A stretch of DNA of 62,795 bases, filler included, from 5 parts of 5 records of this genome joined end to end with filler, not necessarily neighbours in it; one strand, 5' to 3'; positions 31,337 through 48,434 are shown, counted from the whole stretch's first letter. The notes: generated by a model not told the origin, from the letters alone. A program made the numbers and translations.

Positions 31337-31436
31337 NNNNNNNNNNNNNNNNNNNNNNNNNNNNNNNNNNNNNNNNNNNNTTAATTAATTAANNNNNNNN
31401 NNNNNNNNNNNNNNNNNNNNNNNNNNNNNNNNNNNN
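31337..31436. other. Artificial contig linker
   Basis: N run containing TTAATTAATTAA. Confidence 0.99.
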
Positions 31437-31486
31437 ACAAGTCCTATTTTTAAATACATCTTATTCCGCTTGGTAGTGATTATCAT
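31437..31486 (-). CDS. 5' end of a third cassette gene, truncated
   Basis: (MIITTKRNK)MYLKIGL.. begins just after the GTTATTA core and runs into the linker. Confidence 0.4.
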
Positions 31487-31488
31487 TG

Positions 31489-31619
31489 TAATAACGACCG
31501 AGGCTAGAAAGTCGTACGGACTCTTTACCAAGGTTTTATTTTAAAGATAGGAATAGTTTTCAAACCAAAATTGATTGTCCGAAGCATAAACCCGTATGCT
31601 TTTTAAGCCTTTGTTATGT
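31489..31619 (-). repeat. attC-like recombination site (131 bp)
   Basis: Minus strand ACATAAC-AA-AGGCTTAAAAAGCATACGG...CCGTACGACTTTCTAGCCT-CGGTC-GTTATTA; the upstream gene's TAA stop lies in the TAAC core. Confidence 0.75.
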
Positions 31620-31922
31620 GCTTCCTTCACGTTTATTTCCGCAAGCTGCACAAAATGATGCCTGCGGAGTGCGATATGGTTTACCACATTTTTCACAGGG
31701 AGGTCCATGATGATCTATACAGTGGTGCATTACTGCATTGGGGACAGTCTCTTTGAAACCAGTCACGGATTCGTAGTATTCGAGTAGTGGTTTGAACCGA
31801 TCTTTAAGTGGTATTCCAGTTTTCTTAAACGCATCTCCATATAATTTACTTGCAATGGCAAACTCGTCCTTGTCAAGCATAGGAATTTCCATTTTACATC
31901 TCCAGCACCAGAGTTTCTGCAT
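31614..31922 (-). CDS. Small Cys/His-rich putative zinc-binding protein (cassette cargo)
   Basis: CWRC, HH, CEKC and CAAC motifs. Confidence 0.75.
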   Translation of the reverse strand: MQKLWCWRCKMEIPMLDKDEFAIASKLYGDAFKKTGIPLKDRFKPLLEYYESVTGFKETVPNAVMHHCIDHHGPPCEKCGKPYRTPQASFCAACGNKREGST

Positions 31923-31924
31923 AA

Positions 31925-32257
31925 CTAAAATTTAGTAGATGGAATATAATATGATGCCGAGAATTGCAATTTTGGGTTCGAAGACTTGAATTGATTAAAT
32001 GCAGTAATGTACCATTCTGGATCAGTAGGCTTTTTATTATAATCCTCACAAGTTAACACGTTATAGAACTCACCATTTAACCATGGTTCAATCCCGTATA
32101 CACCGAGATTAAGCTCGGTTATACGGGTCAACACAATTTCAAACTCTTCAGCATTAAAATACTTAATTGAATCGGCATCAAATCCATCGTTAAGATTATT
32201 CAAATTGTAAAAGACTTTTTCATCCAAATATTTCAATTTTGCTTGCTGATTATCCAT
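31925..32257 (-). CDS. Hypothetical acidic protein (cassette cargo)
   Basis: 110-aa ORF with GVYGIEPW motif, 2 nt from the next start. Confidence 0.7.
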   Translation of the reverse strand: MDNQQAKLKYLDEKVFYNLNNLNDGFDADSIKYFNAEEFEIVLTRITELNLGVYGIEPWLNGEFYNVLTCEDYNKKPTDPEWYITAFNQFKSSNPKLQFSASYYIPSTKF

Positions 32258-32298
32258 AATGGTTTACAATCTATGGTTTTTGAGTAATGGTCAGTTGC

Positions 32299-32370
32299 AC
32301 ATAACGGACAAAGCTAAGAAACGTTGCCGTCCCCGCAGGGGCGGCTATGTTTTCTTAGCTAGTGTTATGA
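32299..32370 (-). repeat. attC-like recombination site (72 bp)
   Basis: Minus strand TCATAAC-ACT-AGCTAAGAAAACATAGCCGCCCC-TGCG-GGGACGGCAACGTTTCTTAGCT-TTGTCC-GTTATGT. Confidence 0.8.
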
Positions 32371-32406
32371 GCATGATTTATAATATTTCGTAATTTGATT
32401 GCTCTA

Positions 32407-34632
32407 CTAACTGTAATACTTCATGAAGTGAACTCGTTCTCTTTTAAAATCATATTCTTCAAATTCTTCATTGTGCAGTGAGAATACAAGAATTTTTTCT
32501 TCCATTTCATTGAGATATATAAATCCATTTTTGCCTACCGAAATATCTACAATATCTCGGCAATCATTGTCCTTTCGTTCTCTAGTTAGTGTTTTAGACG
32601 CAAAAGTTCTGTGGTTTTTAATTTTAATATGTTCAAATACACTATCTCTTCTATTTAAATCAAGATACGCGCAGTAAAGTTCTAAATCAGCTCCCTTTTC
32701 GATGTAATCTATTGCGATCGAAATTGATTCCTTTAGATGATGAATATTCAAAATCTCATATTCGACTTTTCCTAAACGAATAAGAAGGAAAGCTCCAGTA
32801 CCATTGGTAGATCCACGTAGTAAGATCAACTCTTCACCGTTGTGATCAATTCTTTGAAGTTTGATGTTCTGCAAATTAAAAAGAAATGAGGCTTCTTTAC
32901 TTAGTTCGAATGATTTCAGCCATTCATTAATTTCTTTGAAGTCCCAAATACTCGATCTAATTGATTCAATTGTTATTATTGGATTAATTTGAAAATCGTC
33001 AGAAATTTGATATACTAATTCTCCAGTACTATTGAGGTAATTATTTCCGATCCCAACAAACCCCAAATTAAAGGGAGTCAACTTGAGATAGAAATCTAAA
33101 TAATAATTCTTTAAATGACGGAATTCATTAAACACCATTATTTTTTCTTCAATCTGAACTATCGTTTGAATTGACCCATCGTCTTCAATTTTGCAAAAAA
33201 TGTCATCAATTCTCTCATTTTCTGGTGCATGATAAAAGAAATTGGCTGTTAAATCTTGCTCTGGATTCCAATAAAAACAATCTCGAGCGTTGATACCAAC
33301 TATAAGGGTTGAATTCAAAGTTCTAACAACCTCGACGCTAGATACTCTTAATTGTCTATCTAATGGTAACTTTGCATATATCTGATCTATTTTTTTTGGG
33401 TTTCGAAGGCTTAGGTCAGTGGAAGTTATGATTAGAACAAAATTTCTAGGTAAATTTCTAACAATAGAGGCCGTTGGTTTTTCAACGTAAAGTTCGTTTA
33501 CATCGTATTCTAAAAATCTCTTCACTGAACTAATTATTCGCGTAAGGTTTTCGAATAGATATCGATCTGAGCGATATGTTTCGACTAAATCCAATTTCAA
33601 ATCCATTGATAACTTAATCTCAGCAATAAAACTAGCAAGATGACCTGAGAAATAACCATGATGAATTGGACACCAATTCAATAGCTTTAAATCCTTTAAT
33701 ATATCCTTTGGAATTTTCTCTAAGCAGCTAAATGCGAATAATCCACTTTGAATAAAACGTATATGATCAAGGTTTTCCGGTGAAAATGAATCTTTAACCC
33801 AGTCGTCAACGATTTCATTTAACTCTGACAGATTAAAAATTGACTGGATAATTCTTTGAGTAGAAGAAAATTTATCTCTCTTATCAACGATAGTCGCATT
33901 GTATTGTTCAAGTGCTTGATTGAACGCGAACACCATTTCAGATTCAACCCAATAGTGTTCTTTATCATAGGCCTTTTGGATGATTGAATTCAGTTTATTA
34001 CTGTCTTGTCCTCCAATTAGTAGTTGTTTTATTTCAGCTAATTCATTTCTGAATTGGTCTATTATCAATGTATTAGGGTCTTCATGAGACTCACCACAAA
34101 ACAATTTGCACCAGACATCCCCGAAATAATTACGTACTATTGTGGGATGCTTTTTCAGAATTCTGTTAATCTGGACGCTATCCCATTTAACAAAGTCAAT
34201 GCCGATCTTTTTTAGATCAGACCTTAGCGAATTGAATTTATCCTGCAGACTTGTTGAATTTAACTTGAGACTTGTGCACAAATAAAATTTATCACTTTTT
34301 GAACACCAGTTACCTTTCTTGAAGTCATGTACAATTTCGTCAAGTTGACCAGGTGAAATGGCTTGATATCTCTTGCACTGAAAACACTCATATTTATCGG
34401 TATTTTTGAATGCGAAAATATCGATACCCTCTTGCTTACTGCCGGAAACACCATAAATTTCGCATTTCTCAATTGAATGCTCTTCCTCAACTAACCTTAA
34501 ACAAAGCCTTTCGAAATCAACCCAAGATAATTTATTGATTGGCAATTCGCTAATTCTCGTGTCCGCCGGCGGAGAAACTATGGATTCTGGACCGGTCAAT
34601 AAATATGAAATATCTATTTGTTTTTTATTCAT
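32407..34632 (-). CDS. Mrr-like PD-(D/E)xK restriction-endonuclease domain fused to a large uncharacterised region (cassette cargo)
   Basis: N-terminal WVDFERLC...GSKQEGIDIFA...FQCKRY; no Walker A seen. Confidence 0.75.
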   Translation of the reverse strand: MNKKQIDISYLLTGPESIVSPPADTRISELPINKLSWVDFERLCLRLVEEEHSIEKCEIYGVSGSKQEGIDIFAFKNTDKYECFQCKRYQAISPGQLDEIVHDFKKGNWCSKSDKFYLCTSLKLNSTSLQDKFNSLRSDLKKIGIDFVKWDSVQINRILKKHPTIVRNYFGDVWCKLFCGESHEDPNTLIIDQFRNELAEIKQLLIGGQDSNKLNSIIQKAYDKEHYWVESEMVFAFNQALEQYNATIVDKRDKFSSTQRIIQSIFNLSELNEIVDDWVKDSFSPENLDHIRFIQSGLFAFSCLEKIPKDILKDLKLLNWCPIHHGYFSGHLASFIAEIKLSMDLKLDLVETYRSDRYLFENLTRIISSVKRFLEYDVNELYVEKPTASIVRNLPRNFVLIITSTDLSLRNPKKIDQIYAKLPLDRQLRVSSVEVVRTLNSTLIVGINARDCFYWNPEQDLTANFFYHAPENERIDDIFCKIEDDGSIQTIVQIEEKIMVFNEFRHLKNYYLDFYLKLTPFNLGFVGIGNNYLNSTGELVYQISDDFQINPIITIESIRSSIWDFKEINEWLKSFELSKEASFLFNLQNIKLQRIDHNGEELILLRGSTNGTGAFLLIRLGKVEYEILNIHHLKESISIAIDYIEKGADLELYCAYLDLNRRDSVFEHIKIKNHRTFASKTLTRERKDNDCRDIVDISVGKNGFIYLNEMEEKILVFSLHNEEFEEYDFKRERVHFMKYYS

Positions 34633-34703
34633 GTATTCAACTTCCTATGCATTCTGCGTGCTCTCTGCATGTTTTCTAATGTTCCACCGAGCCAATTGCA
34701 TAT

Positions 34704-34750
34704 TGCTCATAACTACTGGCTAAACTCCATGGCGTTTAGCCAACTTATAA
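34704..34750 (-). repeat. Array-head site (attI-like or degenerate attC)
   Basis: Minus strand TTATAAGT-TGGCTAAAC-GCCATGGA-GTTTAGCCA-GTA-GTTATGAGCA; left core is AAG rather than AAC. Confidence 0.55.
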
Positions 34751-34940
34751 ATCCTCTCCGCCAAATCTCAGCCAAAACCTGACTGGCAAAGAACTAATCC
34801 GACAAACAAATGCTTACAAGTACTTGATTTCAGTTAGATTATCTCTCCTAAATTACTTTTTTTCGGCAGAGTAGGGCATTTTGATCTACTTTTTTTGAAT
34901 CTACCTTTCACACACCAAATCCCCTTCATTCCCTGAAAAC

Positions 34941-34970
34941 AAAAAAGCCACCTCGCAATGAGATGGCTTT
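34941..34970 (-). terminator. Intrinsic terminator of the M13 peptidase operon
   Basis: Minus strand AAAGCCATCTCATTGCGAGGTGGCTTTTTT. Confidence 0.85.
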
Positions 34971-34996
34971 CAATTCTATTTCTTGCAGAACGAGTT

Positions 34997-37072
34997 CTAC
35001 CAGATCTTACTGATTTCTTCTTCTGAATTTCTCATCGGATCCGCTTCTTTTACGTCGAACGCTTCGAAAAATTCTGGGCAGTTCATCAAAGGTCCATTCA
35101 CACGGTACATACCAGGTGAGTGCGGATCATTCGCAATGCGGTTTTTCAATTCTTCTTCTGTATAATTGATTTTCCACAATTGTGCGTAGGCTATAAAGAA
35201 ACGTTGCGCTGGAGTATATCCCAATTTTTTCACTCCTGCTTGGAACTCACTCGTGCGAGTGTAAGCATAGTAAGCCATTGTTAATCCACCGAGATCGGCG
35301 ATGTTTTCACCCATCGTTAAGTCTGGATTTACACAGTGACCGTCAATTGGACAAAATCCTGCGAACGTCATTCCTAATTTTCCAGTGCGCTCTTCAAACA
35401 ATTTACGATCGCTTTCTGTCCACCAGTTTCTAAATGATCCATCGGCAGCAAATTTCGATCCCATATCGTCAAAACCATGCGTAAATTCGTGTCCGATCAC
35501 CATTCCAATACGACCGTAATTCACAGCGTCTTCATACGAATCACTAAAGAAAGGAGCTTGCATAATTCCAGCTGGAAAAGCAATTTCATTCAATAATGGA
35601 TGATAATAAGCGTTCACCATGTGAGCTGGCATTCCCCATTCTTCTTTGTCAACAGGCTTGTTCAACTCCTTCATGTTCTTTTTGTGATCATAAGCGGCCA
35701 CATTTTTAAGATTCTGAACATATCTTTCATTCGAGAAATCCAATGAACTAAAATCTTCCCATTTACTAGGGAAACCGAGTTTTCTTCCGATAGAATTAAG
35801 TTTCACCGAAGCTTCTGTTTTTGTTTCACCAGACATCCAGTCCAAAGCATCAATTCGCTCTTGGAAAACAGCCAATAGATTGTCAACCATTTCGTTTACA
35901 CGTTGCTGTGCTTGACTAGAGTAGTGCTTTTCAACAAATGCTTTCCCGAGTAATTCACCAAATGATTTTCCAGTAATATTATCGATTGCACGCTCATTGA
36001 TAGGCTTCATTTCTTTCTTTCCACTCAATACTTTTCCGTAGAATTCGAAATTTTGGTCTACAAAAGACGAACTCAAACTTCCTGCGTAGTGATTCAATAC
36101 TTGCCATTTAAGGTAGTTTTTCCAATCGCTTAATGATACGTCGTTCATCATCACGGCAATTTTCTTCGCGAAATCTGGCTGAGCCACAATTACTGAGTCG
36201 AAAGCCATGCTTCCAATTCCTTTCAAATATCCATCGAAATTAAAACCTCCCAAATAAGATGCTAATTCATTACGGTGCATTTTATTGTACGTTTTCTCTG
36301 GGCTTCTTAATTCCGCAGGACGCATCATGCTTTCCGCAAGTTGTTTTTCAAAGTTGATAACAGAAGTCGCGAATTCATCCACCGTTGTACCTTCTTCCAT
36401 ATCAGTCATACCAATCATGATTGAGATATGTCTTTTGTATTCTCTCAGGATTTCTGCTTTGTCTTCGGAGAAATAATAATCTCTATTTGGCAAGCCAATT
36501 CCACCTTGACCGAAGTAAGAAATGTGATTATCAACATCCTTCAAATCTTGTCCAACTCCAAAACCGAAAAGAGAACCAATTCCATATACATGGTGATCAG
36601 AAACGATCATGAAAAGGTCTTTCTTTGAATTCGCTTTACGGATAATTTCTAATTCCTCAGCGATCGGAGAAAAACCAAATTTCTCACGGACTTCCATGTT
36701 TGTGTACGAAGAATAATACGAACCAAGAATTTGATTCATAGAACCTTTTTGTCCTTGGTTGGCTTTTGCGGCCTCTAAAATAGTCGTGAGTTTCGTTTTG
36801 TTGGATTGATCCAATTCGTTGAAACTTCCCCAACGTGATTCAGAAGCAGGCACTGGATTACTTTTCATCCAAGTTCCGTTTGCGAACTCAAAGAAGTCAT
36901 CTTGTGGACGAACAGCATTGTTCATGTAACCAAGATCTATCGACGCACCTTCGCGCGGTGGCTTAGGAGTTGCAGTTTCCACAGCTTCAGCAACTGTTTC
37001 TTGCGATCCTTTCTTAATTGAGTCGCATGCTACGAGACTAAGCGCCGCGAATGTTAATAAAGTATATTTCAT
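34997..37072 (-). CDS. M13-family zinc metallopeptidase (PepO/neprilysin-like) lipoprotein
   Basis: Lipobox LVAC; PQDDFF, VNAYY, HEFTHGFDD, GENIADLGG, DPHSP. Confidence 0.95.
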   Translation of the reverse strand: MKYTLLTFAALSLVACDSIKKGSQETVAEAVETATPKPPREGASIDLGYMNNAVRPQDDFFEFANGTWMKSNPVPASESRWGSFNELDQSNKTKLTTILEAAKANQGQKGSMNQILGSYYSSYTNMEVREKFGFSPIAEELEIIRKANSKKDLFMIVSDHHVYGIGSLFGFGVGQDLKDVDNHISYFGQGGIGLPNRDYYFSEDKAEILREYKRHISIMIGMTDMEEGTTVDEFATSVINFEKQLAESMMRPAELRSPEKTYNKMHRNELASYLGGFNFDGYLKGIGSMAFDSVIVAQPDFAKKIAVMMNDVSLSDWKNYLKWQVLNHYAGSLSSSFVDQNFEFYGKVLSGKKEMKPINERAIDNITGKSFGELLGKAFVEKHYSSQAQQRVNEMVDNLLAVFQERIDALDWMSGETKTEASVKLNSIGRKLGFPSKWEDFSSLDFSNERYVQNLKNVAAYDHKKNMKELNKPVDKEEWGMPAHMVNAYYHPLLNEIAFPAGIMQAPFFSDSYEDAVNYGRIGMVIGHEFTHGFDDMGSKFAADGSFRNWWTESDRKLFEERTGKLGMTFAGFCPIDGHCVNPDLTMGENIADLGGLTMAYYAYTRTSEFQAGVKKLGYTPAQRFFIAYAQLWKINYTEEELKNRIANDPHSPGMYRVNGPLMNCPEFFEAFDVKEADPMRNSEEEISKIW

Positions 37073-37074
37073 GT

Positions 37075-37536
37075 TTAGTTGTTTTTTGGTTCAAAGAGCA
37101 TTTCTACGTGTGGAATTCCATCTTCCAAGTACTCTTTTCCTGTCGTTAAAAATTTATGCTTGCCGTAATAGTTTTCCAAATGTTTCTGTGCCGAAATGCG
37201 AATTGGCTCGTTCCCGAATTCGAGGAGACAAAAATCCATTGCTTTTTCCATTAACTCATGTCCAACGCCGTGTCCACGAATCCCTTCGCTGGTAACAACT
37301 CTTCCAACTGCCACATTTGAATAGGCGATTCCTGGAGGAAGAATCCTTGCTGTTGCTACGATATCACCTTTACCATCTCTACAGATGATATGGTACGCTT
37401 TTTTGTCCTTTCCATCCAAATCTAAATACGGACAGTTTTGTTCTACGACAAATGCGTTTAATCTCAACGCTATAATGTCATGAAATTCATTCAGCGTTAA
37501 ATCGCGATAGTGTTTTATTTGCCAATCTAAAATCAT
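37075..37536 (-). CDS. elaA: ElaA-like GNAT acetyltransferase
   Basis: LRxxxFVVEQNCPYLDLDG, IRISAQ, YLEDGIPH; likely start 37536. Confidence 0.85.
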   Translation of the reverse strand: MILDWQIKHYRDLTLNEFHDIIALRLNAFVVEQNCPYLDLDGKDKKAYHIICRDGKGDIVATARILPPGIAYSNVAVGRVVTSEGIRGHGVGHELMEKAMDFCLLEFGNEPIRISAQKHLENYYGKHKFLTTGKEYLEDGIPHVEMLFEPKNN

Positions 37537-37540
37537 ATTC

Positions 37541-39184
37541 TCATGTTTGAATAACACCAACGTTATATGGTTTCTCTGCCTTTTTATGACTCGCCATCTC
37601 AATTCCCATAGAGATCACTTTTCGCGTTTCTAGTGGATTAATGATTGCATCGACCCATAATCTACTTGCCGCATAATAAGGCGAAATTTGTTCGTCGTAC
37701 CTGTTTTTAATTGTATCAAAGAGTTCTTTCTCGCGTTCAGGAGTAATTTCTTCTCCTTTCGATTTCAACGATGCTACTTCAATTTGCAACAATACTTTTG
37801 CCGCAGCTGCACCGCTCATTACAGCAAGTTCAGCAGTTGGCCATGCAACGATTAAACGTGGATCGTAAGCCTTTCCGCACATCGCGTAGTTTCCAGCTCC
37901 GTATGAATTTCCTGTGATGATCGTGAACTTAGGAACGACAGAATTCGCCATGGCACTCACCATTTTCGCACCGTCTTTGATGATTCCACCGTGTTCACTT
38001 TTCGATCCCACCATAAATCCAGTAACATCCTGAATAAATACGAGGGGAATGTTCTTTTGATTACAATTCATTATAAATCGCGCAGATTTGTCCGCTGAAT
38101 CAGAATAGATCACTCCGCCAAATTGCATTTCGCCTTTTGCGTTTTTCACAATCTCTCGCTGATTCGCTACAATTCCAACGCTCCAACCATCTACACGTGC
38201 ATATCCGCACACGATGGATTGACCATAATTTTCTTTGTACTCCGTAAATTTAGAATCATCTACTAGGCAGTTGATAATATCGCGGACATTGTACGGTTTC
38301 GAACGATCTGCAGGAAGGATTCCATAAATATCGCGCTCATTTTCTTTCGGAGGAGCCGATTCTTTTCTATCAAATCCTGCATTTTCAGGTTGACCGATTT
38401 TATCCATTAAATCGCGAATCGTAGACAAACATTCCTCATCTGTCTCTACGTTGTAATCGCATACGCCAGAAATTTCAGTGTGCGTTGTCGCTCCACCCAA
38501 TGTCTCATTATCAATCGATTCACCAATGGCTGCCTTAACGAGGTAAGAACCTGCAAGGAAAATAGTTCCAGTTTTATTTACAATTAAGGATTCGTCAGAC
38601 ATGATAGGTAAGTACGCGCCACCTGCGACACAACTTCCCATAACGGCAGCTATTTGAACAATTCCCATAGAACTCATTACAGCATTGTTTCGGAAAATTC
38701 TCCCGAAGTGCTCTTTGTCAGGGAAAATTTCATCTTGCATCGGAAGGAATACTCCCGCAGAATCTACCAAATAGATAATCGGTAAACGATTCTCCATCGC
38801 AATCTCTTGAGCTCGAAGGTTCTTTTTTCCTGTGATTGGAAACCATGCACCAGCTTTTACTGTAGCATCATTCGCAACAACAATACATTGCTTCCCGCTT
38901 ACATATCCAATCACAACAACAACGCCTCCAGATGGACATCCGCCGTGCTCTTTATACATTCCGTAACCAGCTATCGCGCCAATTTCAATTCTTTCAGCGT
39001 CTGGATCCAATAATAAGTCAATGCGCTCTCTTGCAGTTAACTTACCTTGACTATGAAGTTTTTCGATGCGTTTTTTTCCACCGCCCTCATAGATCTTTCC
39101 CAATTCGCGCTCAAGTGCAGAAATCTTGAGGCGCATTTCATCGTCATTCTTATTAAATTCTAGTTCCTTCGGAGAAATAGCCAT
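37541..39184 (-). CDS. Acyl-CoA carboxylase carboxyltransferase (beta) subunit, methylcrotonyl/propionyl-CoA type
   Basis: GKLTARERI, NDATVKAG, GSCVAGGAY, DVTGFMVG, SYGAGNYAMCG. Confidence 0.93.
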   Translation of the reverse strand: MAISPKELEFNKNDDEMRLKISALERELGKIYEGGGKKRIEKLHSQGKLTARERIDLLLDPDAERIEIGAIAGYGMYKEHGGCPSGGVVVVIGYVSGKQCIVVANDATVKAGAWFPITGKKNLRAQEIAMENRLPIIYLVDSAGVFLPMQDEIFPDKEHFGRIFRNNAVMSSMGIVQIAAVMGSCVAGGAYLPIMSDESLIVNKTGTIFLAGSYLVKAAIGESIDNETLGGATTHTEISGVCDYNVETDEECLSTIRDLMDKIGQPENAGFDRKESAPPKENERDIYGILPADRSKPYNVRDIINCLVDDSKFTEYKENYGQSIVCGYARVDGWSVGIVANQREIVKNAKGEMQFGGVIYSDSADKSARFIMNCNQKNIPLVFIQDVTGFMVGSKSEHGGIIKDGAKMVSAMANSVVPKFTIITGNSYGAGNYAMCGKAYDPRLIVAWPTAELAVMSGAAAAKVLLQIEVASLKSKGEEITPEREKELFDTIKNRYDEQISPYYAASRLWVDAIINPLETRKVISMGIEMASHKKAEKPYNVGVIQT

Positions 39185-39206
39185 AGTTCAATTTTCTTAA
39201 GTGGCT

Positions 39207-39214
39207 CAAATATA
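39207..39214 (-). promoter_or_regulatory. Bacteroidota -7 promoter element
   Basis: TATATTTG on the minus strand, upstream of the carboxylase gene. Confidence 0.6.
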
Positions 39215-39340
39215 CACATTCTGTTTTGTGACTTTAACACGATTCGCGATTTCTTGATGAACGGCGTGAAGCACAAATACACGGAGATAATCCACAGTGA
39301 AATGTTTATATTCTCTCAGAAGAAGTTGATCAGATAGCGT

Positions 39341-39348
39341 TAAATTTG
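39341..39348 (+). promoter_or_regulatory. Bacteroidota -7 promoter element
   Basis: TAAATTTG ending 4 nt before the pcm ATG. Confidence 0.65.
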
Positions 39349-39352
39349 CACC

Positions 39353-39994
39353 ATGCAAGATTCGTACAGATATAAAGGAATGCGTCGAAAGTTAATCTCT
39401 GAGCTTAGAGAAAAGGGAATTTCCGATGAGAGAGTGTTAAATGCATTTGATTCCATTCCTCGTCACTTTTTCTTAGACAACGCGTTTGCAGAGCAGGCGT
39501 ATACGAATATGGCATTTCAAATCGGGTCAGGACAAACGATCAGTCACCCGTATACCGTAGCATTTCAAACAATGCTTCTGGATATCCAAAAAGGGGAGAA
39601 GATCCTTGAAATTGGTTCTGGATCTGGGTTTCAAACGTGCATTTTGTGCGAAATGGGAGCGAAAGTGTTCAGTATCGAACGTCATCGTCCGCTTCATTTG
39701 AAAGCAAAAGAAATGGTGCGACATTTTAATTTCAACGCTAGACTTAGCTTTGGAGATGGTTATAAAGGCTTGCCGACATTTGCTCCGTTTGATAAAATCA
39801 TTATTACATGCGGTGCGCCAGAAATTCCAATGGATTTGGTAGATCAACTTAAATTAGGTGGATTAATGATTATTCCCGTGGGAGAAGGCGCCGAGCAAAT
39901 GATGAAACTAATTGTTAAAACCGAAAATGGATTTCTCGAAGACGATTTGGGAGTGTTCAGTTTTGTACCAATGCTTCAAGATAAGGTGAAGTAA
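39353..39994 (+). CDS. pcm: Protein-L-isoaspartate O-methyltransferase
   Basis: PRHFF, GQTISHPY, LEIGSGSG, GDGYKG...APFDKII, FVPM. Confidence 0.95.
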   Translation: MQDSYRYKGMRRKLISELREKGISDERVLNAFDSIPRHFFLDNAFAEQAYTNMAFQIGSGQTISHPYTVAFQTMLLDIQKGEKILEIGSGSGFQTCILCEMGAKVFSIERHRPLHLKAKEMVRHFNFNARLSFGDGYKGLPTFAPFDKIIITCGAPEIPMDLVDQLKLGGLMIIPVGEGAEQMMKLIVKTENGFLEDDLGVFSFVPMLQDKVK

Positions 39995-40033
39995 TTACTT
40001 TTTTTACTGATATTAGCATCAAAAAAACTAATC

Positions 40034-40756
40034 ATGATTAAACTGAAAGATAACGAGCAACGTTCTAAGAACGCCATATTAACAATGTGGTTTATTCTTG
40101 GAGGTGTAATATTAGGATTGATAATTGAACTCTATTCAATAAAAGTACTTTTTGACTTAAAGAATTTAGAATATGGAAATCTTACTTATTTATCAGAAGG
40201 TTTACAGTCTGGACCTGTGCTTATACTACTTGGGTTTGGAGGATTGATTCTACTCGCTGTAAACGTCATTGCCATAGTGTATTTCATAATGTGGTTCAGA
40301 CGGGCTTATTGGAATTTACACCAATTAACAAATGGACTTCAGTATAGCGAGGGATGGGCTGCTGGAGCTTGGTTTATTCCTGTTTTTAGCTGGTTTGGAC
40401 CATTCCAGATTGCTAAAGAACTCTTCACAAAAACGGAAGGTTTGTTAGTAGCAGAAGGATTGATCGAAGCAAATCCCAAGAGAATGAAAATAGCAGGTGT
40501 TTGGTGGACTTTGTGGATAATCTCTTCAATTTTGGGAGCCATCGCTAATCAAGGCGATAAAATCAACGATATTGATGGTCAAATTATATTCGGTTTTCTA
40601 AGTATAGTTGCATCGTCGATCTCTATCATTGCTGCAATTTTTGCAGTTAAAATGATTAAGGAATACCACAAAATGGAAGTGCTTTTGTCAAAATTACAAA
40701 GTGGAGTGGCAACGATTCGTTTAGACGATAATGACCTTCTTGATTCGGGAATGTAA
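40034..40756 (+). CDS. DUF4328-like membrane protein
   Basis: Four TM helices; WFRRAYWNL...GWAAGAWFIP...WW motif. Confidence 0.75.
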   Translation: MIKLKDNEQRSKNAILTMWFILGGVILGLIIELYSIKVLFDLKNLEYGNLTYLSEGLQSGPVLILLGFGGLILLAVNVIAIVYFIMWFRRAYWNLHQLTNGLQYSEGWAAGAWFIPVFSWFGPFQIAKELFTKTEGLLVAEGLIEANPKRMKIAGVWWTLWIISSILGAIANQGDKINDIDGQIIFGFLSIVASSISIIAAIFAVKMIKEYHKMEVLLSKLQSGVATIRLDDNDLLDSGM

Positions 40757-40816
40757 AACTAATTAAAGCAGTCAGTGATTAATCATCTTAAAATTCGTAG
40801 CAAAAAACATTCAACT

Positions 40817-41878
40817 ATGAAAGCCATTTACGTTCTACTATTCTGTGTGTTACCTTTAGCTGTAGCAGCACAAACGGAGAAAGAAAAAGAAGCAAGAGAC
40901 CTTTGTATAACTGCCATCGAAAAAATGGATAAAGGAGAAATTGAGGAATCGATTGTTCTTTTGAAAAAAGCGCAAAAGCTAGATCCAAAGAATTTGGACT
41001 ATCAATACGAGATGGGATTTGCATACACGCTAAAAAAAGACTACAAAAAAGCGATTTCCATTTTGCAAAAGATCACGGATGATAAAAATACATTCCCTCG
41101 CGCTTACCAATTATTAGGAAATACTTACGACTATAACGGACAATCCGATTTGGCAATCAAAACCTATGAAGAAGGACTCAAGAAATTCCCGAAATCAGGG
41201 GAGTTATATTTGGAGCGCGGAAATATGGAACTGGCGAATGACAAGTTTAATGCAGCGCTCGATTATTACATAAAAGGGACACTTGAAGATCCTGAGTTTC
41301 CATCAAACTACTATTGGTGTGCAAGAATTTACATGAATTCAGAGGATCGATATTTAGGTTTAATTTATGCTGAACTATTTATGAATCTCGAAAGAGGATC
41401 GAAAAGAACAGAGCAAATTAGCCAAGAGATTTTCGATACCTATACAAAGGCAATTACGATCACTAGCGACACCTCAATGAGAATTGATATCTCAAGTGAT
41501 AAAATAGTACTCAATGATCTTGAGAATTTCAAATTGCCTTATGGCCTTTCTGTTTATGCACCCATTTTTTCAATTAGTTGTGCTCTAATGAAGGACGTTA
41601 CAATTGGATCGTTGAATAAAGTTCGCACGACGTTTGTAGATCAGTATTACGAAGCGGGACACAATGAAACATTTCCAATTGTACTTTTCGAATACCAGAA
41701 AAAAGTAAAGAAAGAAGGGCATTTTGAAGCATACAATCATTGGTTGATGATGAAAGGAAATGAAGATGAATTTAAAACTTGGCTAGAGGCAAACAGTGAT
41801 AAATGGTCTGGGTTTATTTATTGGTACAATGACAATCCCATAGAAATAACCGAAAAAACGCGATTTATTCAACCATAA
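40817..41878 (+). CDS. Secreted tetratricopeptide-repeat protein
   Basis: Signal peptide ending AAQ; TPR-like helical repeats. Confidence 0.85.
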   Translation: MKAIYVLLFCVLPLAVAAQTEKEKEARDLCITAIEKMDKGEIEESIVLLKKAQKLDPKNLDYQYEMGFAYTLKKDYKKAISILQKITDDKNTFPRAYQLLGNTYDYNGQSDLAIKTYEEGLKKFPKSGELYLERGNMELANDKFNAALDYYIKGTLEDPEFPSNYYWCARIYMNSEDRYLGLIYAELFMNLERGSKRTEQISQEIFDTYTKAITITSDTSMRIDISSDKIVLNDLENFKLPYGLSVYAPIFSISCALMKDVTIGSLNKVRTTFVDQYYEAGHNETFPIVLFEYQKKVKKEGHFEAYNHWLMMKGNEDEFKTWLEANSDKWSGFIYWYNDNPIEITEKTRFIQP

Positions 41879-41920
41879 GAGTCGATTTGACTCATAGTTT
41901 TCCAAGAGAAAGATAAAAGC

Positions 41921-41958
41921 AAAAAAAGAGCGGTGAATTCAAATTCACCGCTCTTTTT
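41921..41958. terminator. Bidirectional intrinsic terminator
   Basis: AAAAAAAGAGCGGTGAAT...ATTCACCGCTCTTTTTT. Confidence 0.9.
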
Positions 41959-41977
41959 ACAATAATGTTTACGAGGA

Positions 41978-42928
41978 TTAGTGTCCTTTAGCTGCTAAGT
42001 AACGCTCTGCATCCAATGCTGCCATACATCCCGTTCCTGCCGCAGTAACAGCTTGACGATATGTTTTATCCGCTGCATCACCTGCTACGAAAACTCCAGG
42101 CACATTCGTTTTCGAGGTTCCAGCTTGCTCGTATTTAATGTAACCTGTTTCATCTAGGTTAATATAATCCTTAAATATGTCCGTATTTGGTTTGTGACCA
42201 ATCGCTACGAAGAAACCTGTACAAGGAATTTCTTTCAATTCTCCCGTTACTGAATTTTTCACACGAACACCAGTTACACCTTGTCCATCACCTAAAACTT
42301 CATCCGTATTCGTGTTGAATAAGATTTCAATATTTGGCGTATTCTTAACACGTTCTGCCATGATTTTTGAAGCTCTAAACTCATCACGACGAACCAACAT
42401 GGTTACTTTTGTGCATAATTTTGAAAGGTAGTGTGCCTCTTCACACGCTGAATCTCCAGCGCCAACAATTACTGTTTCTTGACCACGGTAAAAGAACCCA
42501 TCACAAACCGCACACGCTGAAACCCCACCACCAATTTTCAAATAGTGTTGTTCACTTTCTAGACCTAAATACTTAGCTGAAGCTCCAGTTGAGATAATGA
42601 TTGTATCTGCATGAATTTCAGTACCATCTTCTACCCAAGCCTTATGAACATCACCAGAGAAATCAACCTTGTTTATGAATCCAAAACGAACATCTGTTTC
42701 AAATCTTTTTGCTTGCGCTTCAAGTTGAATCATCATTTCTGGACCAGTTACACCATCCGGATAACCAGGGAAATTTTCTACTTCATTTGTTGTTGTAAGC
42801 TGTCCTCCAGGCTGCATTCCTTGATATAAGACAGGCTTCATATCAGCTCTTGCTGCATATATTGCAGCCGTAAATCCAGCAGGGCCAGAACCAATAATTA
42901 AGCACTTTACTTTTTCTATTTCGCTCAT
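41978..42928 (-). CDS. trxB: Thioredoxin reductase
   Basis: GSGPAG, GGQL, CAVCDG, GAGDSA, YRQAVTAAGTG. Confidence 0.97.
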   Translation of the reverse strand: MSEIEKVKCLIIGSGPAGFTAAIYAARADMKPVLYQGMQPGGQLTTTNEVENFPGYPDGVTGPEMMIQLEAQAKRFETDVRFGFINKVDFSGDVHKAWVEDGTEIHADTIIISTGASAKYLGLESEQHYLKIGGGVSACAVCDGFFYRGQETVIVGAGDSACEEAHYLSKLCTKVTMLVRRDEFRASKIMAERVKNTPNIEILFNTNTDEVLGDGQGVTGVRVKNSVTGELKEIPCTGFFVAIGHKPNTDIFKDYINLDETGYIKYEQAGTSKTNVPGVFVAGDAADKTYRQAVTAAGTGCMAALDAERYLAAKGH

Positions 42929-42965
42929 TTTATTTTAACTAATGTTTATTCTTTAGACGTAGGAA

Positions 42966-43096
42966 CAAAAGTAACATTTCGCGAAATATGTTGGGTCGCT
43001 TTTCTCCTTAGAAGAGGCAAGCTTAGGAATTCAAGTATTTAATTCTCCGAATAAAGCACTTTAATTTGTGTTTTCATTAAAAAGACACTAGCTTTG
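42966..43096. promoter_or_regulatory. Divergent Bacteroidota promoters
   Basis: TACTTTTG on minus (42966-42973) for trxB; TAGCTTTG on plus (43089-43096) for the helicase. Confidence 0.6.
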
Positions 43097-43121
43097 TAGC
43101 CGCATTTTTGCAGGAAAAAAT

Positions 43122-44633
43122 ATGATTGATACGGAACTTTACGAAGCCAAAGTGCTTTACCCTTTTCAGGAGAAAACAGTAAAATTACTTCTAAAAGAAC
43201 TTCATGATAATGGGAAAGATTTCAATCTTTTGTTTCAATTACCTACGGGTGGAGGTAAGACCGTGATTTTCTCTGAAATTGCTCGGAATTACATTGAGCA
43301 AACGAATGAAAAGGTACTTATTTTAACACATAGGATTGAACTTTCTGTTCAGACATCAAAGCAACTTTCGGCAATTGGTGTTGGAAATAAGATCATTAAC
43401 AGCGAGGTAAAGACGATTCCTGATCAAACGGAATTTAACTGCTTCATTGCAATGGTTGAAACACTAAACAACCGATTAAGCGACGATGAGAACTTTATCA
43501 AAGGTGTAGGCCTGGTAATTGTTGATGAGGCGCACTATAATAGCTTTAGAAAGATTTTCCAGTATTATGAGAATGCAAATATACTTGGTGTAACAGCGAC
43601 ACCTTTGAGCAGTAACAAAGCACTTCCCCTAAACGATAACTATAATAAGTTACTAGTTGGTGAAAGCATTTCTTCTCTTATCGAATCGGGATACTTGGCG
43701 GATGCGGATTCATATACATACGATGTAAACCTTCACGGTTTGAAAATTGGTTCGAATGGCGACTTTACAGTAAGTAGCTCTGACGTGGTTTACGGGAACT
43801 ATTTCATGCAAGAAAAGTTACTTTTTGCTTATGAAGAAGTTGCAGTAGGGAATAAGACGTTGATTTTTAACTCAGGAATTGATACATCTCTTCGTGTTGA
43901 GGAAACGTTTAAAAAACGCGGTTTCCCAATTCGACACTTGGATTCAACATTTAGCGATAAGGATAGAAAAGATGTATTGAGCTGGTTTAAGAAAACACCT
44001 GATGCGATTCTTTCGTCAGTTGGGATTTTGACAACAGGATTTGATGAGCCAACAGTTGAGACAATTATACTAAATAGAGCCACGCGTTCTTTAACATTGT
44101 ATCACCAGATGATCGGGCGTGGATCGCGAAAGCTGCCTAAAAAAGACCGATTTAAGGTCATCGACTTAGGGAATAATGTTCGACGATTCGGCTTGTGGCA
44201 AGATTATTTGAATTGGCAAGATGCCTTCCGTTTTCCAGATAGGTTCTTAGAAGCAAGATTAAGCGAAACAGAGGATCTAGAATTTGAAACAGAATTTGAA
44301 TTCCCTAGAGGATCAGAAGAAATTTTAAACGTTAAAGAACTGGAAGAATTCAGTATCAAAGATGTTTACTACGATTGCGTTGACCGCGGATTAAAAGGGA
44401 AAGAGGCAGTAGATTTATCTCTTGAGAATCACTTTAAAGTAATTTGTGATGCGGCGGAAGATTATTTTCATGGGCTTGAACTTATGGAAATGTTGAAAGA
44501 CCACATCGAGCATCGCTTGAAGCACTACACAAAATGTATCACGAAAAGTACTCCGAATTACTTGAAGTATATCAGCGAAACATACGTGCGACAGTTAAGA
44601 CAGAAACTTAGAGCAAATCTCGAAGACGAATAA
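43122..44633 (+). CDS. SF2 DEAD/DEAH-box helicase (ResIII/RadD-like)
   Basis: PTGGGKT, DEAH, TATP, TTGFDEP, QMIGRG. Confidence 0.92.
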   Translation: MIDTELYEAKVLYPFQEKTVKLLLKELHDNGKDFNLLFQLPTGGGKTVIFSEIARNYIEQTNEKVLILTHRIELSVQTSKQLSAIGVGNKIINSEVKTIPDQTEFNCFIAMVETLNNRLSDDENFIKGVGLVIVDEAHYNSFRKIFQYYENANILGVTATPLSSNKALPLNDNYNKLLVGESISSLIESGYLADADSYTYDVNLHGLKIGSNGDFTVSSSDVVYGNYFMQEKLLFAYEEVAVGNKTLIFNSGIDTSLRVEETFKKRGFPIRHLDSTFSDKDRKDVLSWFKKTPDAILSSVGILTTGFDEPTVETIILNRATRSLTLYHQMIGRGSRKLPKKDRFKVIDLGNNVRRFGLWQDYLNWQDAFRFPDRFLEARLSETEDLEFETEFEFPRGSEEILNVKELEEFSIKDVYYDCVDRGLKGKEAVDLSLENHFKVICDAAEDYFHGLELMEMLKDHIEHRLKHYTKCITKSTPNYLKYISETYVRQLRQKLRANLEDE

Positions 44634-44699
44634 ATAAAGCGCTTCTGTGGATTTTGAACCAAATGTGCATCTTGCATGTACAGGATCAAAATCAACGCC

Positions 44700-45605
44700 A
44701 TGGGAATCTATATTGACAAGCCTTGTTCTGAAGATTGGAACAAGATGACACCTACAGAATTGGGAGCTTTTTGTAAAAAATGTTCTCTTGAAGTCTACGA
44801 TTTTAGCGGAAAATCACCGATGGAAATCAAACAAGTTTTATTGAATAATCAATCAGGGAGCCTTTGTGGAAGAATTTCCCCGAGTACTTTGGAAACCATG
44901 AACGTTGATTTTCGTGCTTGGGAGAGAAACAATAAACGTTCGTTTCAAAGTATTTTAATCTTCTCTCTAATTGTCGCTTTCGGATTTACACTATTTAGCT
45001 GTAATGAAGAAGAAAAACGGAAATTCGGCGAAATTCAAACTGCTGGACAATCCTTGATTCATGAAAAAAATGAGGTCCCAAAACTCCAGAATGACACGTT
45101 AGTTGTCAGTACTGAAAATGTACAAGCAGTTCCAACAGTAATTCCGAAAGTAGGTAAAGCTGAGATCGAAGTGATTCAAATAGTTCCTGATTTTCCAATT
45201 GAAAACATTCAAGGTGCTATGAGGTATGAGCCAATGGAGTTTGAGGATGTTAACAGAGACATCATGAGGTTGGGTGGAATGGGTTTCACGCCATCATTTA
45301 TTGAATATGTTCAGGAGGATATTGATAGTACGGAATCGGAAGTTAAAGTAGAGTTTTCGGCCAAAGTCTTCCCTAATCCAGCGAGAGAGGCATCGCAATT
45401 GGAACTAGAATTACCTCAAGATATCAATGCGCAGATCAAATTGTTTAATCTTGCTGGAGAACTAGTTAAAAACCTGTATTCGGGTGAACTCGGAGAAGGA
45501 AGGCAAACAATAGAAATGAATTTGAACGGTTTAATTGAAGGGATTTATCTAGTGACAATTCAATCACCTGAATATTCGACCTCCATTAAACTCCGAAAAT
45601 ATTAG
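44700..45605 (+). CDS. T9SS type A C-terminal-domain protein with Cys-rich N-terminal domain
   Basis: PCSEDWNKM...FCKKC...VYDF...CGR N-terminus; C-terminal VFPNP...LFNLAG...GIYLV. Confidence 0.8.
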   Translation: MGIYIDKPCSEDWNKMTPTELGAFCKKCSLEVYDFSGKSPMEIKQVLLNNQSGSLCGRISPSTLETMNVDFRAWERNNKRSFQSILIFSLIVAFGFTLFSCNEEEKRKFGEIQTAGQSLIHEKNEVPKLQNDTLVVSTENVQAVPTVIPKVGKAEIEVIQIVPDFPIENIQGAMRYEPMEFEDVNRDIMRLGGMGFTPSFIEYVQEDIDSTESEVKVEFSAKVFPNPAREASQLELELPQDINAQIKLFNLAGELVKNLYSGELGEGRQTIEMNLNGLIEGIYLVTIQSPEYSTSIKLRKY

Positions 45606-46225
45606 TAGCTCAGAACTAATTCGACGGTATCGAAAGGTACAGTTGTAATTGACTTACTTCCTTGTTGTGTAGTGTTTAACAACCAGTAAATGTATGAATA
45701 CGTCGTGTTTCCATCGTTGATACAGTAAATTGACGTATCGATCAATCCGTTTACATACTGATACGTAGTTGGACAGCAATCGTCGCATTCTTGCTTACCT
45801 TCTTGTTTTATGTATTTCAAAACATCCGATTGACTTCCACTTGTATGTACAAAACGTAAATTCACCCACGATTTAGCAGTTACAAAGAAGTTTCTATAGT
45901 TCGTTTCCTTAATTGATAAATCGGAAAGAGAAAATTCATCTTCCTTAGAAAAGTAATCATTTTTCGAAACTTGAATAATGTAAGATTCTGTTTTATCGCG
46001 GTTAAATTCAAATGAATAACTGCCATCACTTCCAGTTTGTGTCGATGCAATTTGCTTATATGAAGAACTCCCAATAGAAAGTTGAAACAGCTTTACATCA
46101 GCGCCCTCAAGCGGCTGTCCAAATGTAAGGTCTAAAATATTTCCATTAATAACAAAACTGGGAGTTCCCTTATTACAAGAGAATAACAACAGCAGAAGAA
46201 AAAGAGGAGCGATAAATCTTGACAT
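45602..46225 (-). CDS. Lipoprotein with carboxypeptidase-regulatory-like beta domain
   Basis: Lipobox LFSC; GNILD...PLEGADV...TGSDGSYSF. Confidence 0.7.
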   Translation of the reverse strand: MSRFIAPLFLLLLLFSCNKGTPSFVINGNILDLTFGQPLEGADVKLFQLSIGSSSYKQIASTQTGSDGSYSFEFNRDKTESYIIQVSKNDYFSKEDEFSLSDLSIKETNYRNFFVTAKSWVNLRFVHTSGSQSDVLKYIKQEGKQECDDCCPTTYQYVNGLIDTSIYCINDGNTTYSYIYWLLNTTQQGSKSITTVPFDTVELVLSY

Positions 46226-46349
46226 GGTTAAAATTTGAAGTTAAGGTAAGTATGTTCGTCGATTTTTCAAAAGATTCTCGTCTAAAGAATTACATTCAAA
46301 AAGTTTGAGCATCTTTATCGTTGAACCGTTAAATTAAAATTAAAACGCC

Positions 46350-47822
46350 TTGAGTAGTTTAATCAGACAGATCATACGGAATACTGCCACTAGAATTATG
46401 TTGGTAATTTACCTTCTAATTATTGGTATTTCTGGATTTTATATCACTTTTGGTTATTACAATGCACTCAAACTTCAGGAAATTCGACAATACGACAAGT
46501 TGAAATCAATCGTTAGTTCACTGGCGTTAGTCATGGACGGAGATGCAGTAGAAAGAATGTTGAACAAATATCCTGAAAAAGATGGAATACATTCAATTTC
46601 AGATGACAGTACCTATTTGATGTACAATGCACTGTTTTCTCAGGTGGCTAAAATTAATCACCTAGAACAGCCCATTTATACACTCACATACGATCAGGAA
46701 AAAAGAATCTTTGTTCAGGGAATTCGCTCGGGTGAAAATGTTTATTTCCGCCATGAATACGTGCGTTTTCCGAAAGAGTTAGTGGATAAAATGGAAATAG
46801 GAGGTACACTTCCAAGGTATTCATCCGAAAATGGGGTTTGGCTGTCTGCTTTTCATCCAGTGAAAAACAAGGCCGGTGACTTAGTCTGCGTCCTAGAAGC
46901 TGATGTAGACTTTTCGAAGTTCATGATGATGGTTCGAAAAGATTACTTGGAGGCAATTTTAATTACGCTACTTATTATAGCTAGTCTCGCAGTTGTACTT
47001 TCCATTTACGCTCGAAAAATCTTAAGGAATGATCAAGAGCAAAAAAAACTGCTTATTCGTCAGAAAACAGAGATTGAGACAAAAAATAGAGATATTAATG
47101 ATTCAATTCGATATGCACTAAATATTCAAGAAGCATTCCTTCCTCCAAGACCGAAGTTTTCGACAAATTTTAGTGATCATTTTATTGTTTATTTACCTAA
47201 AGACATAGTCTCTGGAGATTTTTATTGGTTGGAAGAATCGGGTGATAATGTTTTCTTCGCTTTGGGTGATTGTACAGGGCATGGAGTTCCAGGTGCAATG
47301 GTGAGTGTAGTGTGCTCAAATGCAATGAATCGAATTATGACCTTAGGGGAGTTTAATTCAACGGGAAGCTTTTTGGGGCAGGTCGATGATCTTGTTTCTG
47401 GTCGCTTTTCAAAAGGATATGATGGGATGGACATTGCCCTCTGTAACCTTGATAAAAATACGTTAACTCTAGAGTTCTCTGGGGCGAACAATGGAATTTT
47501 AGTGCTTTCAAATGGGGAACTTTTGAAAATACCATCAACCAGACAACCGATTGGAAGACATGCAAAAAAGAGTGTTTTTAATGTAGATCACATTCAATTA
47601 AAAAAAGGAGATGTCATTTTTCTTTTCTCAGACGGGTTTGCGGATCAATTCGGAGGAAGTCGTGGAAAAAAAATGGGAATGCAGGAATTAAAGAACTTGT
47701 TACTCAGTTCTTATGGGGAATCAATGATAGAGGTGAAAGAACGTCTCGAAAATCACTTTGCTGAATGGAAGGGAAGTGCAGAACAGGTCGACGATGTTTC
47801 AGTTATTGGAATTCTTATCTAA
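46350..47822 (+). CDS. Membrane sensor PP2C/SpoIIE (RsbU-like) phosphatase
   Basis: Two TM helices around a Cache-like domain; VSGDFY, DCTGHGVPGA, SDGFADQFGG, DDVS. Confidence 0.92.
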   Translation: MSSLIRQIIRNTATRIMLVIYLLIIGISGFYITFGYYNALKLQEIRQYDKLKSIVSSLALVMDGDAVERMLNKYPEKDGIHSISDDSTYLMYNALFSQVAKINHLEQPIYTLTYDQEKRIFVQGIRSGENVYFRHEYVRFPKELVDKMEIGGTLPRYSSENGVWLSAFHPVKNKAGDLVCVLEADVDFSKFMMMVRKDYLEAILITLLIIASLAVVLSIYARKILRNDQEQKKLLIRQKTEIETKNRDINDSIRYALNIQEAFLPPRPKFSTNFSDHFIVYLPKDIVSGDFYWLEESGDNVFFALGDCTGHGVPGAMVSVVCSNAMNRIMTLGEFNSTGSFLGQVDDLVSGRFSKGYDGMDIALCNLDKNTLTLEFSGANNGILVLSNGELLKIPSTRQPIGRHAKKSVFNVDHIQLKKGDVIFLFSDGFADQFGGSRGKKMGMQELKNLLLSSYGESMIEVKERLENHFAEWKGSAEQVDDVSVIGILI

Positions 47823-47943
47823 TGCGATTTATCAGTCTTTTAAGACATTAAGCATTTGCAGTTTTGAACATTATTAAGGATCAATTGTTAATAGTTTTAC
47901 CTATTTTTTTTTTGATCTAAGTGTTCTCCAAACGGGTTTTTTA

Positions 47944-47951
47944 TATATTTG
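47944..47951 (+). promoter_or_regulatory. Bacteroidota -7 promoter element
   Basis: TATATTTG upstream of ATG 47975. Confidence 0.55.
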
Positions 47952-47974
47952 ACCTCAACTATTAAACTATTATT

Positions 47975-48319
47975 ATGTCAGAAATGCAAAAGAAAAACGG
48001 TATGGCAGTAGCTGCCCTCGTTTTAGGAATTATTTCAATCGCGTTGTTTTTAACTGGATGGATAGCCGCTTTATGTGGTTTATTGGCGATTATTTTTGGT
48101 ATTGTTGCCCTCAACAAAGTTAAGGCGGATCCAGATTTGGCTTCAACTAAAGGCAAGGCTAAAGCCGGTCTAGTTATGGGGATTATCGGTCTAATCCTTG
48201 GAGTTGTTTGGACAATTATTGCTATCATGGCGGTAAATGCTGCGATGGAGGCTGGATTTGATCGTTTAAACAATATCGATCAGCAAGAGCTTAGCGATAT
48301 GTTCAATGAGAATAATTAA
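47975..48319 (+). CDS. DUF4190-family membrane protein
   Basis: NGMAVAALVLGI...G.ALN...GKAKAGLVMG. Confidence 0.8.
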   Translation: MSEMQKKNGMAVAALVLGIISIALFLTGWIAALCGLLAIIFGIVALNKVKADPDLASTKGKAKAGLVMGIIGLILGVVWTIIAIMAVNAAMEAGFDRLNNIDQQELSDMFNENN

Positions 48320-48337
48320 GATCAATTAATTAATATT

Positions 48338-48371: not shown

Positions 48372-48434
48372 CATTTGAATTGCCTCTAAAAAGGAAATAT
48401 TTCTTATCTATGTGTTAACTATAAACCAATATTC

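Follow-up and report, generated by a model that had tools for sequence, protein, structure and literature searches.

Hairpin-bounded gene cassettes in Crocinitomicaceae: a probable integron-like array and a candidate recombinase outside the IntI family

The window analysed here, a stretch of 62,795 nucleotides, is a chain of contigs joined by runs of N at 9448-9547, 31337-31436, 50141-50240 and 56185-56284. The minus strand of positions 31438-34753 very probably represents the head of a cassette array that belongs to an integron-like system of the Crocinitomicaceae (Flavobacteriales) with a recombinase family other than IntI. We regard the array as real and as integron-like in structure; its recombination activity and the identity of its enzyme we infer from sequence. 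Read in gene orientation, the order is a gene for an M13 peptidase, its terminator, a head site (site 3), an open reading frame (ORF) of 741 aa, site 2, two ORFs of 110 and 102 aa, site 1, the first 57 bases of a third unit and the end of the contig.

Sites and cassettes in the window

In the arrangement proposed, a cassette would be a promoter-distal gene or gene pair together with its own imperfect-palindrome site. Such a site would begin with an R'' box (..TAAC) and end with an R' box (GTTA..), with one L stem on either side of a variable centre; the spacer between R'' and its L stem would be short and that before R' longer. Cassette A (32305..34712, minus strand; 2408 bp given crossover at G^TT) begins with TTATGAGCA, contains the 741-aa ORF and closes with site 2 (32294..32375, minus strand), its folded site, which is of the medium length class and has R'' TGCTCATAAC, a 10-bp L stem, a G+C-rich inner hairpin and R' GTTATGTGC. 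Cassette B (31495..32304, minus strand; 810 bp) begins with TTATGTGC, contains two tightly spaced ORFs and closes with site 1 (31485..31624, minus strand), a folded site of the long class that measures 121 nt from AAC to GTT and has R'' GCACATAAC and R' GTTATTAC. What is present of the third cassette (31438..31494, minus strand) begins with GTTATTAC.

The array had been proposed in an earlier analysis of the DNA by itself (the sequence-only reading), according to which the two ends of each cassette are complementary to one another, and both matches are exact: 34704-34713 (TGCTCATAAC) is the reverse complement of 32364-32373 (GTTATGAGCA) at 10/10 positions, and 32297-32305 (GCACATAAC) is that of 31613-31621 (GTTATGTGC) at 9/9 positions. 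Three further statements were borne out, namely the placement of all ORFs on the minus strand (3/3 when both strands were read), the position of the last gene's stop codon inside a site core (the TAA of the 102-aa ORF, 31614-31616, lies within CATAAC) and the truncation of the third unit by the contig end, which falls at 31438 beside an N-run joiner. The outer arms of the sites were also said to be mismatched in place; this describes sites 1 and 3, which pair in the core only, but not site 2, where 8/9 positions pair. Because these in-place arms already pair so well, the cassette-specific signal at site 2 amounts to a single base.

The head site (34702..34753, minus strand) has hairpin arms at plus-strand positions 34717-34725 and 34734-34742, then 3 nt and then the box GTTATGAGCA (plus strand, 34704-34713). 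In gene orientation it consists of a hairpin, 3 nt and GTTATGAGCAAT, the same layout as that of recombinase-proximal sites in relatives. Its upstream arm is degenerate, with TAAG for TAAC (plus strand, 34744-34750), and the description of the sites as AAC...GTT palindromes thus suits sites 1 and 2 but not the head site, whose upstream arm has no AAC. Either the array was seeded or left without an enzyme at this position, or the head site belongs to the short cassette sites and its R'' box has decayed.

Folding of the sites as single-stranded DNA was compared with that of shuffled sequences, which gave z = -6.9 for site 2 (fold of -22.3 kcal/mol), z = -3.9 for site 3 and only z = -1.3 to -1.7 for site 1. 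On the plus strand, the three sites have in common ATAAC, a spacer, GCTA.AAA ... T.AGC, a shorter spacer and GTTAT. A covariance model of the site family, R2, was run against both strands of the whole window (E <= 1) and returned exactly three matches, one at each site and every one on the minus strand. The scores were 68.3 bits for site 2, 25.6 bits for the head site, which belonged to the training set, and 26.4 bits (E = 0.015) for site 1, which did not.

The site family and the recombinase of relatives

When 401 Crocinitomicaceae genomes were searched with the pattern common to the three sites, 13 matches were obtained as against 20 for a reversed-pattern control, so that the count as such is uninformative. 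Eight of these matches were nevertheless hairpins with clear homology and led to arrays, and two of the eight closely copy site 2; near-copies of the site 2 hairpin are present in genomes G310 and G340. The array in G340 extends over 38 kb of a 4.17-Mb contig and contains 27 model matches (G340:C1:2517748-2557399; loci L116, L117 and L124).

Model R2 is based on an alignment (A4) of 19 short and medium sites from five sources, 17 of which come from other genomes, with a structure written by hand that comprises a 6-bp R box and an 11-bp L stem. In the L stem of this alignment 8/11 pairs have changes on both sides, 76.7% of the cells are paired (29-45% with the partner slid), and the covariation score was reached by 0/500 shuffles. 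These compensatory changes suggest that the sites act as folded DNA. The unpaired spacer in A4 is 5-6 nt on the R' side as against 2 nt, a count that is not independent since the sites were chosen by a scanner requiring spacer asymmetry, and it does not follow the T-N6-G pattern of attC given in the available part of PMC3053210. RNAalifold predicted no pairs on A4, a search of the sites against Rfam gave no family at E <= 1, and a model built from site 2 alone (R1) missed sites 1 and 3. Alignments of the three window sites by MAFFT were structurally wrong and were rejected. With R2, sites were found in 74/151 family genomes (E <= 1e-3), the 38-kb array of 27 sites included, and in 30/151 order-level genomes (E <= 1e-4). 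The expectation that the array has its own site family, to be captured by a new covariance model and with similar sites elsewhere, is in agreement with these results.

If crossover took place inside C-GTTA between two sites, the trace expected would be that the bases after GTTA complement those before TAAC of the next site. For the test of this junction rule, 51/53 R2 matches were ordered along each array, the two weakest (E 0.44 and 0.48) being dropped, and a junction was counted when at least 4/5 variable bases after GTTA complement the bases before TAAC in the next downstream site. The rule held in 24/40 adjacent pairs, compared with 7/46 own-site pairs and 76/726 non-adjacent pairs (Fisher p = 5e-13).

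Matched termini fit both reading directions and so cannot tell which hairpin belongs to which gene. In locus L092 the end of a recombinase gene is followed by a perfect palindrome with 13-bp arms, two bases, GTTAGGCAC, a 488-aa ORF and then the first downstream site, whose R'' box GTGCCTAAC is the exact complement of GTTAGGCAC. This arrangement shows that the gene strand is the 'top' strand, that a hairpin trails its own gene and that the first cassette begins at the hairpin plus GTT; the sequence-only reading had assumed the same orientation. R2 matches are also present upstream of the L092 recombinase gene, on the gene's strand (243-385, 1520-1660 and, weakly, 4575-4664), and a longer array seems to surround the gene in this genome.

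Tyrosine recombinases of 375-385 aa are encoded at the array heads in L091, L092 and L120, on the array strand. They match NF040815 (XerA type) at 222-236 bits, above the cut-off of 220, and TIGR02249 (integron integrase) at 191-202 bits, below the cut-off of 265 and in two pieces. The alignment of the recombinase with XerA (4a8e) scores 161 bits and runs without a break over residues 107-370. By contrast with the Vibrio cholerae integrase VchIntIA (2a3v), it has 24 residues in place of IntIA residues 182-248 (67), and the IntI-specific insertion is absent. The VchIntIA residues reported to hold the extrahelical bases (K209, Y210, W219, P232, H240 and H241, in PMC3053210) all fall in the stretch that the recombinase lacks.

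The recombinase has an extra N-terminal domain of ~105 aa, with a predicted fold of pLDDT (predicted local distance difference test) 85.6. A search of this fold against the PDB gave no match at E <= 0.001; the best, the XPB N-terminal domain (E = 0.087), is a lead only. The domain is rare: a search of 1.84 billion representatives gave 138 clusters (E <= 1e-3). It is present in 50/401 family genomes.

In a set of 20 recombinase loci, R2 matches (E <= 0.1) were downstream of the gene and on its strand in 33/33 cases, with 0 in ~140 kb of upstream sequence; this strand polarity is independent of the asymmetry requirement of the scanner. Where at least 1.3 kb of sequence follows the gene (13 loci), R2 matches were found in 10 loci and none in L164, L166 and L175. 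A hairpin followed after 0-6 nt by GTT[A/G], at most 100 nt from the stop codon, was present in 19/22 recombinase loci and in 128/1100 shuffles. In G340, the recombinase gene at the head of the 38-kb array is truncated and has lost its N-terminal part (model positions 84-314, open frame of 211 aa). The co-occurring tyrosine recombinase that the sequence-only reading had called for is thus found in relatives, upstream of arrays and on the same strand, but not in the window.

Several other observations concern these loci. The G340 array and truncated gene adjoin rpmI and thrS fragments. In L120, the first two cassettes after the recombinase gene (L120:4815-5940) have no ORF of at least 70 aa and contain TTTGAC-containing motifs every 30-60 nt; these cassettes might be promoter-like or protein-binding. 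Seven of the 20 recombinase contigs end no more than ~0.9 kb past the gene (L159, L160, L162, L165, L167, L168 and L176), so that the arrays seem to break short-read assemblies and surveys of metagenome-assembled genomes (MAGs) will undercount them.

A classical IntI, defined as a TIGR02249 match above cut-off, was found in 0/251 family genomes and in none of a set of 10 genomes. No sites were found near recombinases of 477-534 aa whose N-terminal part matches TIGR02249 strongly, and these enzymes were judged unrelated. A different system is found at L093:2609-4610, where a 285-aa recombinase with a good N-terminal TIGR02249 match is followed by a 385-aa gene that we take to be an IS91-type transposase.

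Movement of cassettes and alternative explanations

Homologues of the 110-aa protein are present in 36/301 family genomes, and the 102-aa partner adjoins in 4/10 loci examined. In L188 the gene pair of cassette B is found as a cassette: nucleotide homology starts exactly at GTTATGTG, an unrelated hairpin lies before it, 10 bases of the R'' box complement the cassette's own start, and a site scoring 43 bits comes next. The homology to cassette B in L186 likewise starts at the same GTT. The 741-aa protein has homologues in two metagenome relatives, L178 (68% identity) and L177 (72% identity); that of L178 is flanked by two sites, with GTTGTACAAC at both termini. Mobile cassettes had been predicted to have homologues bounded at the same G^TT, and this is the case for cassette B in L188 and L186 and for the 741-aa gene in L178. 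A tblastn search of the cassette proteins against an initial set of loci gave nothing.

In both pairs of homologous cassettes the hairpins are of different length classes (site 1 and L188:1629-1715; site 2 and L178:2908-3048), and the 5' ends and R'' boxes are conserved. There are hints, then, that hairpins are exchangeable, perhaps via crossover at the R'' arm too.

Three runs of one study (X2-X4) contain an identical contig of 18,704 nt, which also ends at 31438. A 106-nt contig of the same runs matches 31438-31489 except for two differences and beyond that stretch enters a different, site-2-like hairpin, and a 2.7-kb contig of the same samples, at matching depth, has a site-2-like hairpin (67/73 bases; stretch 32295-32367) in other flanks. 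These extra contigs at matching depth suggest that the source organism has more cassettes and sites and that the end at 31438 is a repeat-induced break. In run X5, from another study, the same arrangement is present in fragments at >=99% identity. A further run, X1, contained only 0.05 of the sampled words and was left aside.

In the mechanism proposed, a XerA-like recombinase with the N-terminal domain and without the IntI insertion would excise cassettes as circles, each with a fully paired R box of 9-10 bp, and would re-insert them at a site formed by a hairpin and GTT. The circles expected here would be of 2408 and 810 bp, sizes already given in the sequence-only reading that follow by arithmetic from a G^TT crossover. 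As there is no recombinase gene in the window, the cassettes could move only with an enzyme from another part of the genome. For the Flavobacteriales, we think on balance that hairpin-bounded arrays are run by a XerA-like recombinase which lacks the IntI insertion and has a new N-terminal domain, and that it does so from a hairpin attI directly behind the stop codon of its own gene. Integron-type capture would then need no IntI, standard searches would miss the arrays, and crossover at either arm may make the hairpins exchangeable modules.

A number of results weigh against an array of mobile cassettes with this enzyme. A tblastn search of the window found no gene or remnant of the recombinase. 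The recombinase domain was detected in only 15/74 site-positive genomes, at least six recombinase-positive genomes have no site match at E <= 1e-3 (the genomes behind these counts being mostly incomplete MAGs, searched with stricter filters), and L164 and L166 have >10 kb of sequence downstream of the recombinase and no model match. The genome-level link between sites and recombinase is weak; arrays break assemblies, yet a large number of orphan arrays would equally account for the figures. Of the 40 junctions, 16 do not obey the junction rule, mostly at widely spaced neighbouring sites, where intervening sites may have decayed or escaped detection. Site 1 by itself folds no better than shuffled sequence. 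Two of the four gene-pair homologues (L190 and L194) lie in an ordinary gene context and not in cassettes, and one of the two homologues of the 741-aa protein, that of L177, is without sites. Non-homologous hairpins on homologous cassettes are not predicted by crossover at R' only. Finally, no circle or excision joint was found in four runs, for which the search covered assembled contigs, and these drop rare variants.

Some of these findings could also be explained by a true array of the same family that is immobile here since its cognate recombinase is gone, a reading that we hold to be unlikely but that deserves serious attention. The head without a recombinase, the 59/74 site-positive family genomes without a detected recombinase of this type, the G340 array retained beside a truncated recombinase gene and the recurrence of the same arrangement in the second study (X5) are all consistent with it. 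Decay, however, would erode the perfect 9-10 bp termini that both cassettes keep, and further copies of the sites stand in other contexts on additional contigs from these samples whose depth matches, so that the genome has more of the system. The incompleteness of MAGs and contig breaks would moreover hide recombinase genes, given that 7/20 of the known ones stand so close to a contig end.

It is improbable that the array is an ordinary cluster of attC sites lacking integron integrases (CALIN), in which classical attC sites are moved by a standard IntI whose gene lies in another part of the genome. The layout does have attC-type features, namely imperfect inverted repeats, R''/L''/L'/R' boxes, conserved AAC/GTT and matched cassette termini, and the content would fit a CALIN, with three sites and no recombinase on a contig of 18.7 kb whose array is cut at 31438. 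Bacteroidota are also placed among the phyla with integrons in the available parts of two reviews (PMC8618304, PMC9668308). An insertion-bearing integrase is lacking from the window as well as from the genomes searched with TIGR02249, and the relatives' enzyme is below the cut-off of that model. Every array head seen in the site family adjoins a XerA-like enzyme without the IntI insertion. In addition, the longer unpaired spacer of the 19 aligned sites is on the R' side, whereas the extrahelical bases of classical attC carry the double-prime names of the other arm in the part of PMC3053210 available.

That the sites are static structural elements (terminators or repeats of the repetitive extragenic palindromic (REP) type), with termini matched by chance or shared consensus, is already contradicted and can hardly be maintained: although the outer arm is partly family consensus (GC.CATAAC), the own arms of site 2 already pair and its inner hairpin fits a simple terminator pattern (plus strand), and inverted repeats of 10-12 bases often arise by chance in this A+T-rich stretch, where the 9-10 bp terminal matches do not stand out in a generic repeat search, complementarity is concentrated in adjacent sites over non-adjacent sites and own arms, the homology to cassette B in two other genomes begins exactly at GTT with unrelated DNA before it, and polarity relative to the recombinase gene is strict.

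Cassette genes, genomic setting and relation to known systems

The 741-aa ORF (32407..34632, minus strand) encodes an N-terminal Mrr-type restriction-endonuclease-like domain (Pfam PF04471, residues 32-94, 23.5 bits, cut-off 21), the only domain that could be assigned, and a protein Atlas search gave no usable match. A role in defence is a guess; a PADLOC search with the three cassette proteins matched no family. The 110-aa ORF (31925..32257, minus strand) and the 102-aa ORF (31614..31922, minus strand) are two bases apart. No Pfam family was assigned to the former, and the latter has a C-terminal zinc-ribbon-like CxxC pair with sub-threshold matches only. The Pfam matches of the two small proteins (zinc ribbons, and Botulinum_HA-17 with 14.9 bits where 21 are required) are below threshold and were set aside as not significant.

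The array lies at the very start of a Crocinitomicaceae-like contig of 18.7 kb (31438-50140) with 37% G+C, the housekeeping genes of which are of Bacteroidota type. Upstream of the head site is the gene for the M13 peptidase (34997-37072), with closest relatives of 55-69% identity in Crocinitomicaceae and Fluviicola MAGs, followed by its terminator (34971-34943, minus strand) and then ~190-250 bp of non-coding sequence up to the head site. The peptidase gene and terminator thus occupy the place where the relatives' arrays have the recombinase gene, directly upstream and on the same strand. With a simple scanner, no array adjoining the peptidase gene was found at the loci of 80 relatives (55-69% identity); one strong match (L046) was rejected as it falls within an ORF. 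The contigs of the window differ in G+C content (~58%, 37%, 53% and 65%), and genome G001 shares words with the window without having the 37% contig, so the bin may mix organisms.

The arrays have much in common with classical integrons and CALINs, such as the Vibrio cholerae array (VchIntIA, PDB 2A3V). In both, co-oriented and closely packed genes are each followed by an imperfect palindrome with AAC...GTT, the end of a cassette pairs with its own start, which implies crossover at or beside G^TT, and a stop codon may lie within the inverse core, as in the 102-aa ORF of the window. A putative dedicated insertion site adjoins a tyrosine recombinase gene (here in the relatives), clusters without a recombinase are common, and site length classes are shared by unrelated cassettes, as with the Vibrio cholerae repeats (VCRs). 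The differences concern both enzyme and sites. The relatives' recombinase gene is on the cassette strand and the insertion site comes directly after its stop codon, whereas in classical integrons the integrase gene is divergent from the cassettes. The R box here is ~9-10 bp, the spacer asymmetry is on the R' side and the insertion site is itself a hairpin. Compared with VchIntIA, the relatives' recombinase lacks the insertion of 40-odd residues (alpha-I2, beta-4,5) that contacts extrahelical bases, as described in the available part of PMC3053210, and has the extra N-terminal domain instead.

The Xer recombinases (XerA, PDB 4A8E and 5HXY; XerC/D) are the closest matches of the relatives' recombinase in both sequence and fold. 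Xer enzymes act at one dif site, where they resolve dimers of the chromosome; the relatives' recombinase is found at the heads of cassette arrays instead and carries the additional N-terminal domain. The pdif modules of plasmids are flanked by 28-bp XerC/XerD-type dif-like sites and would by that definition differ from the system described here, in which the sites are hairpins of 47-137 bp.

With IntegronFinder 2.0, the elements reported for the Bacteroidetes in the available part of PMC9024848 are limited to In0 and a single complete integron, that of Salinibacter. No description of arrays of this kind with a non-IntI recombinase was found for the Flavobacteriales in full-text searches of papers, supplementary tables (e.g. 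of CALINs by phylum) aside. In practice, integrons are defined by the IntI-specific insertion, and they are regarded as nearly absent from the Bacteroidota. The site family described here is found in about half of the sampled Crocinitomicaceae genomes, and the enzyme associated with it is without the elements that read the folded attC in the solved IntI complex. If this enzyme is confirmed, an origin of integrons from Xer-like recombinases would become testable, surveys of integrons in the Bacteroidota would need new models, and a second, simpler enzyme for recombination at folded DNA sites would be available for study.

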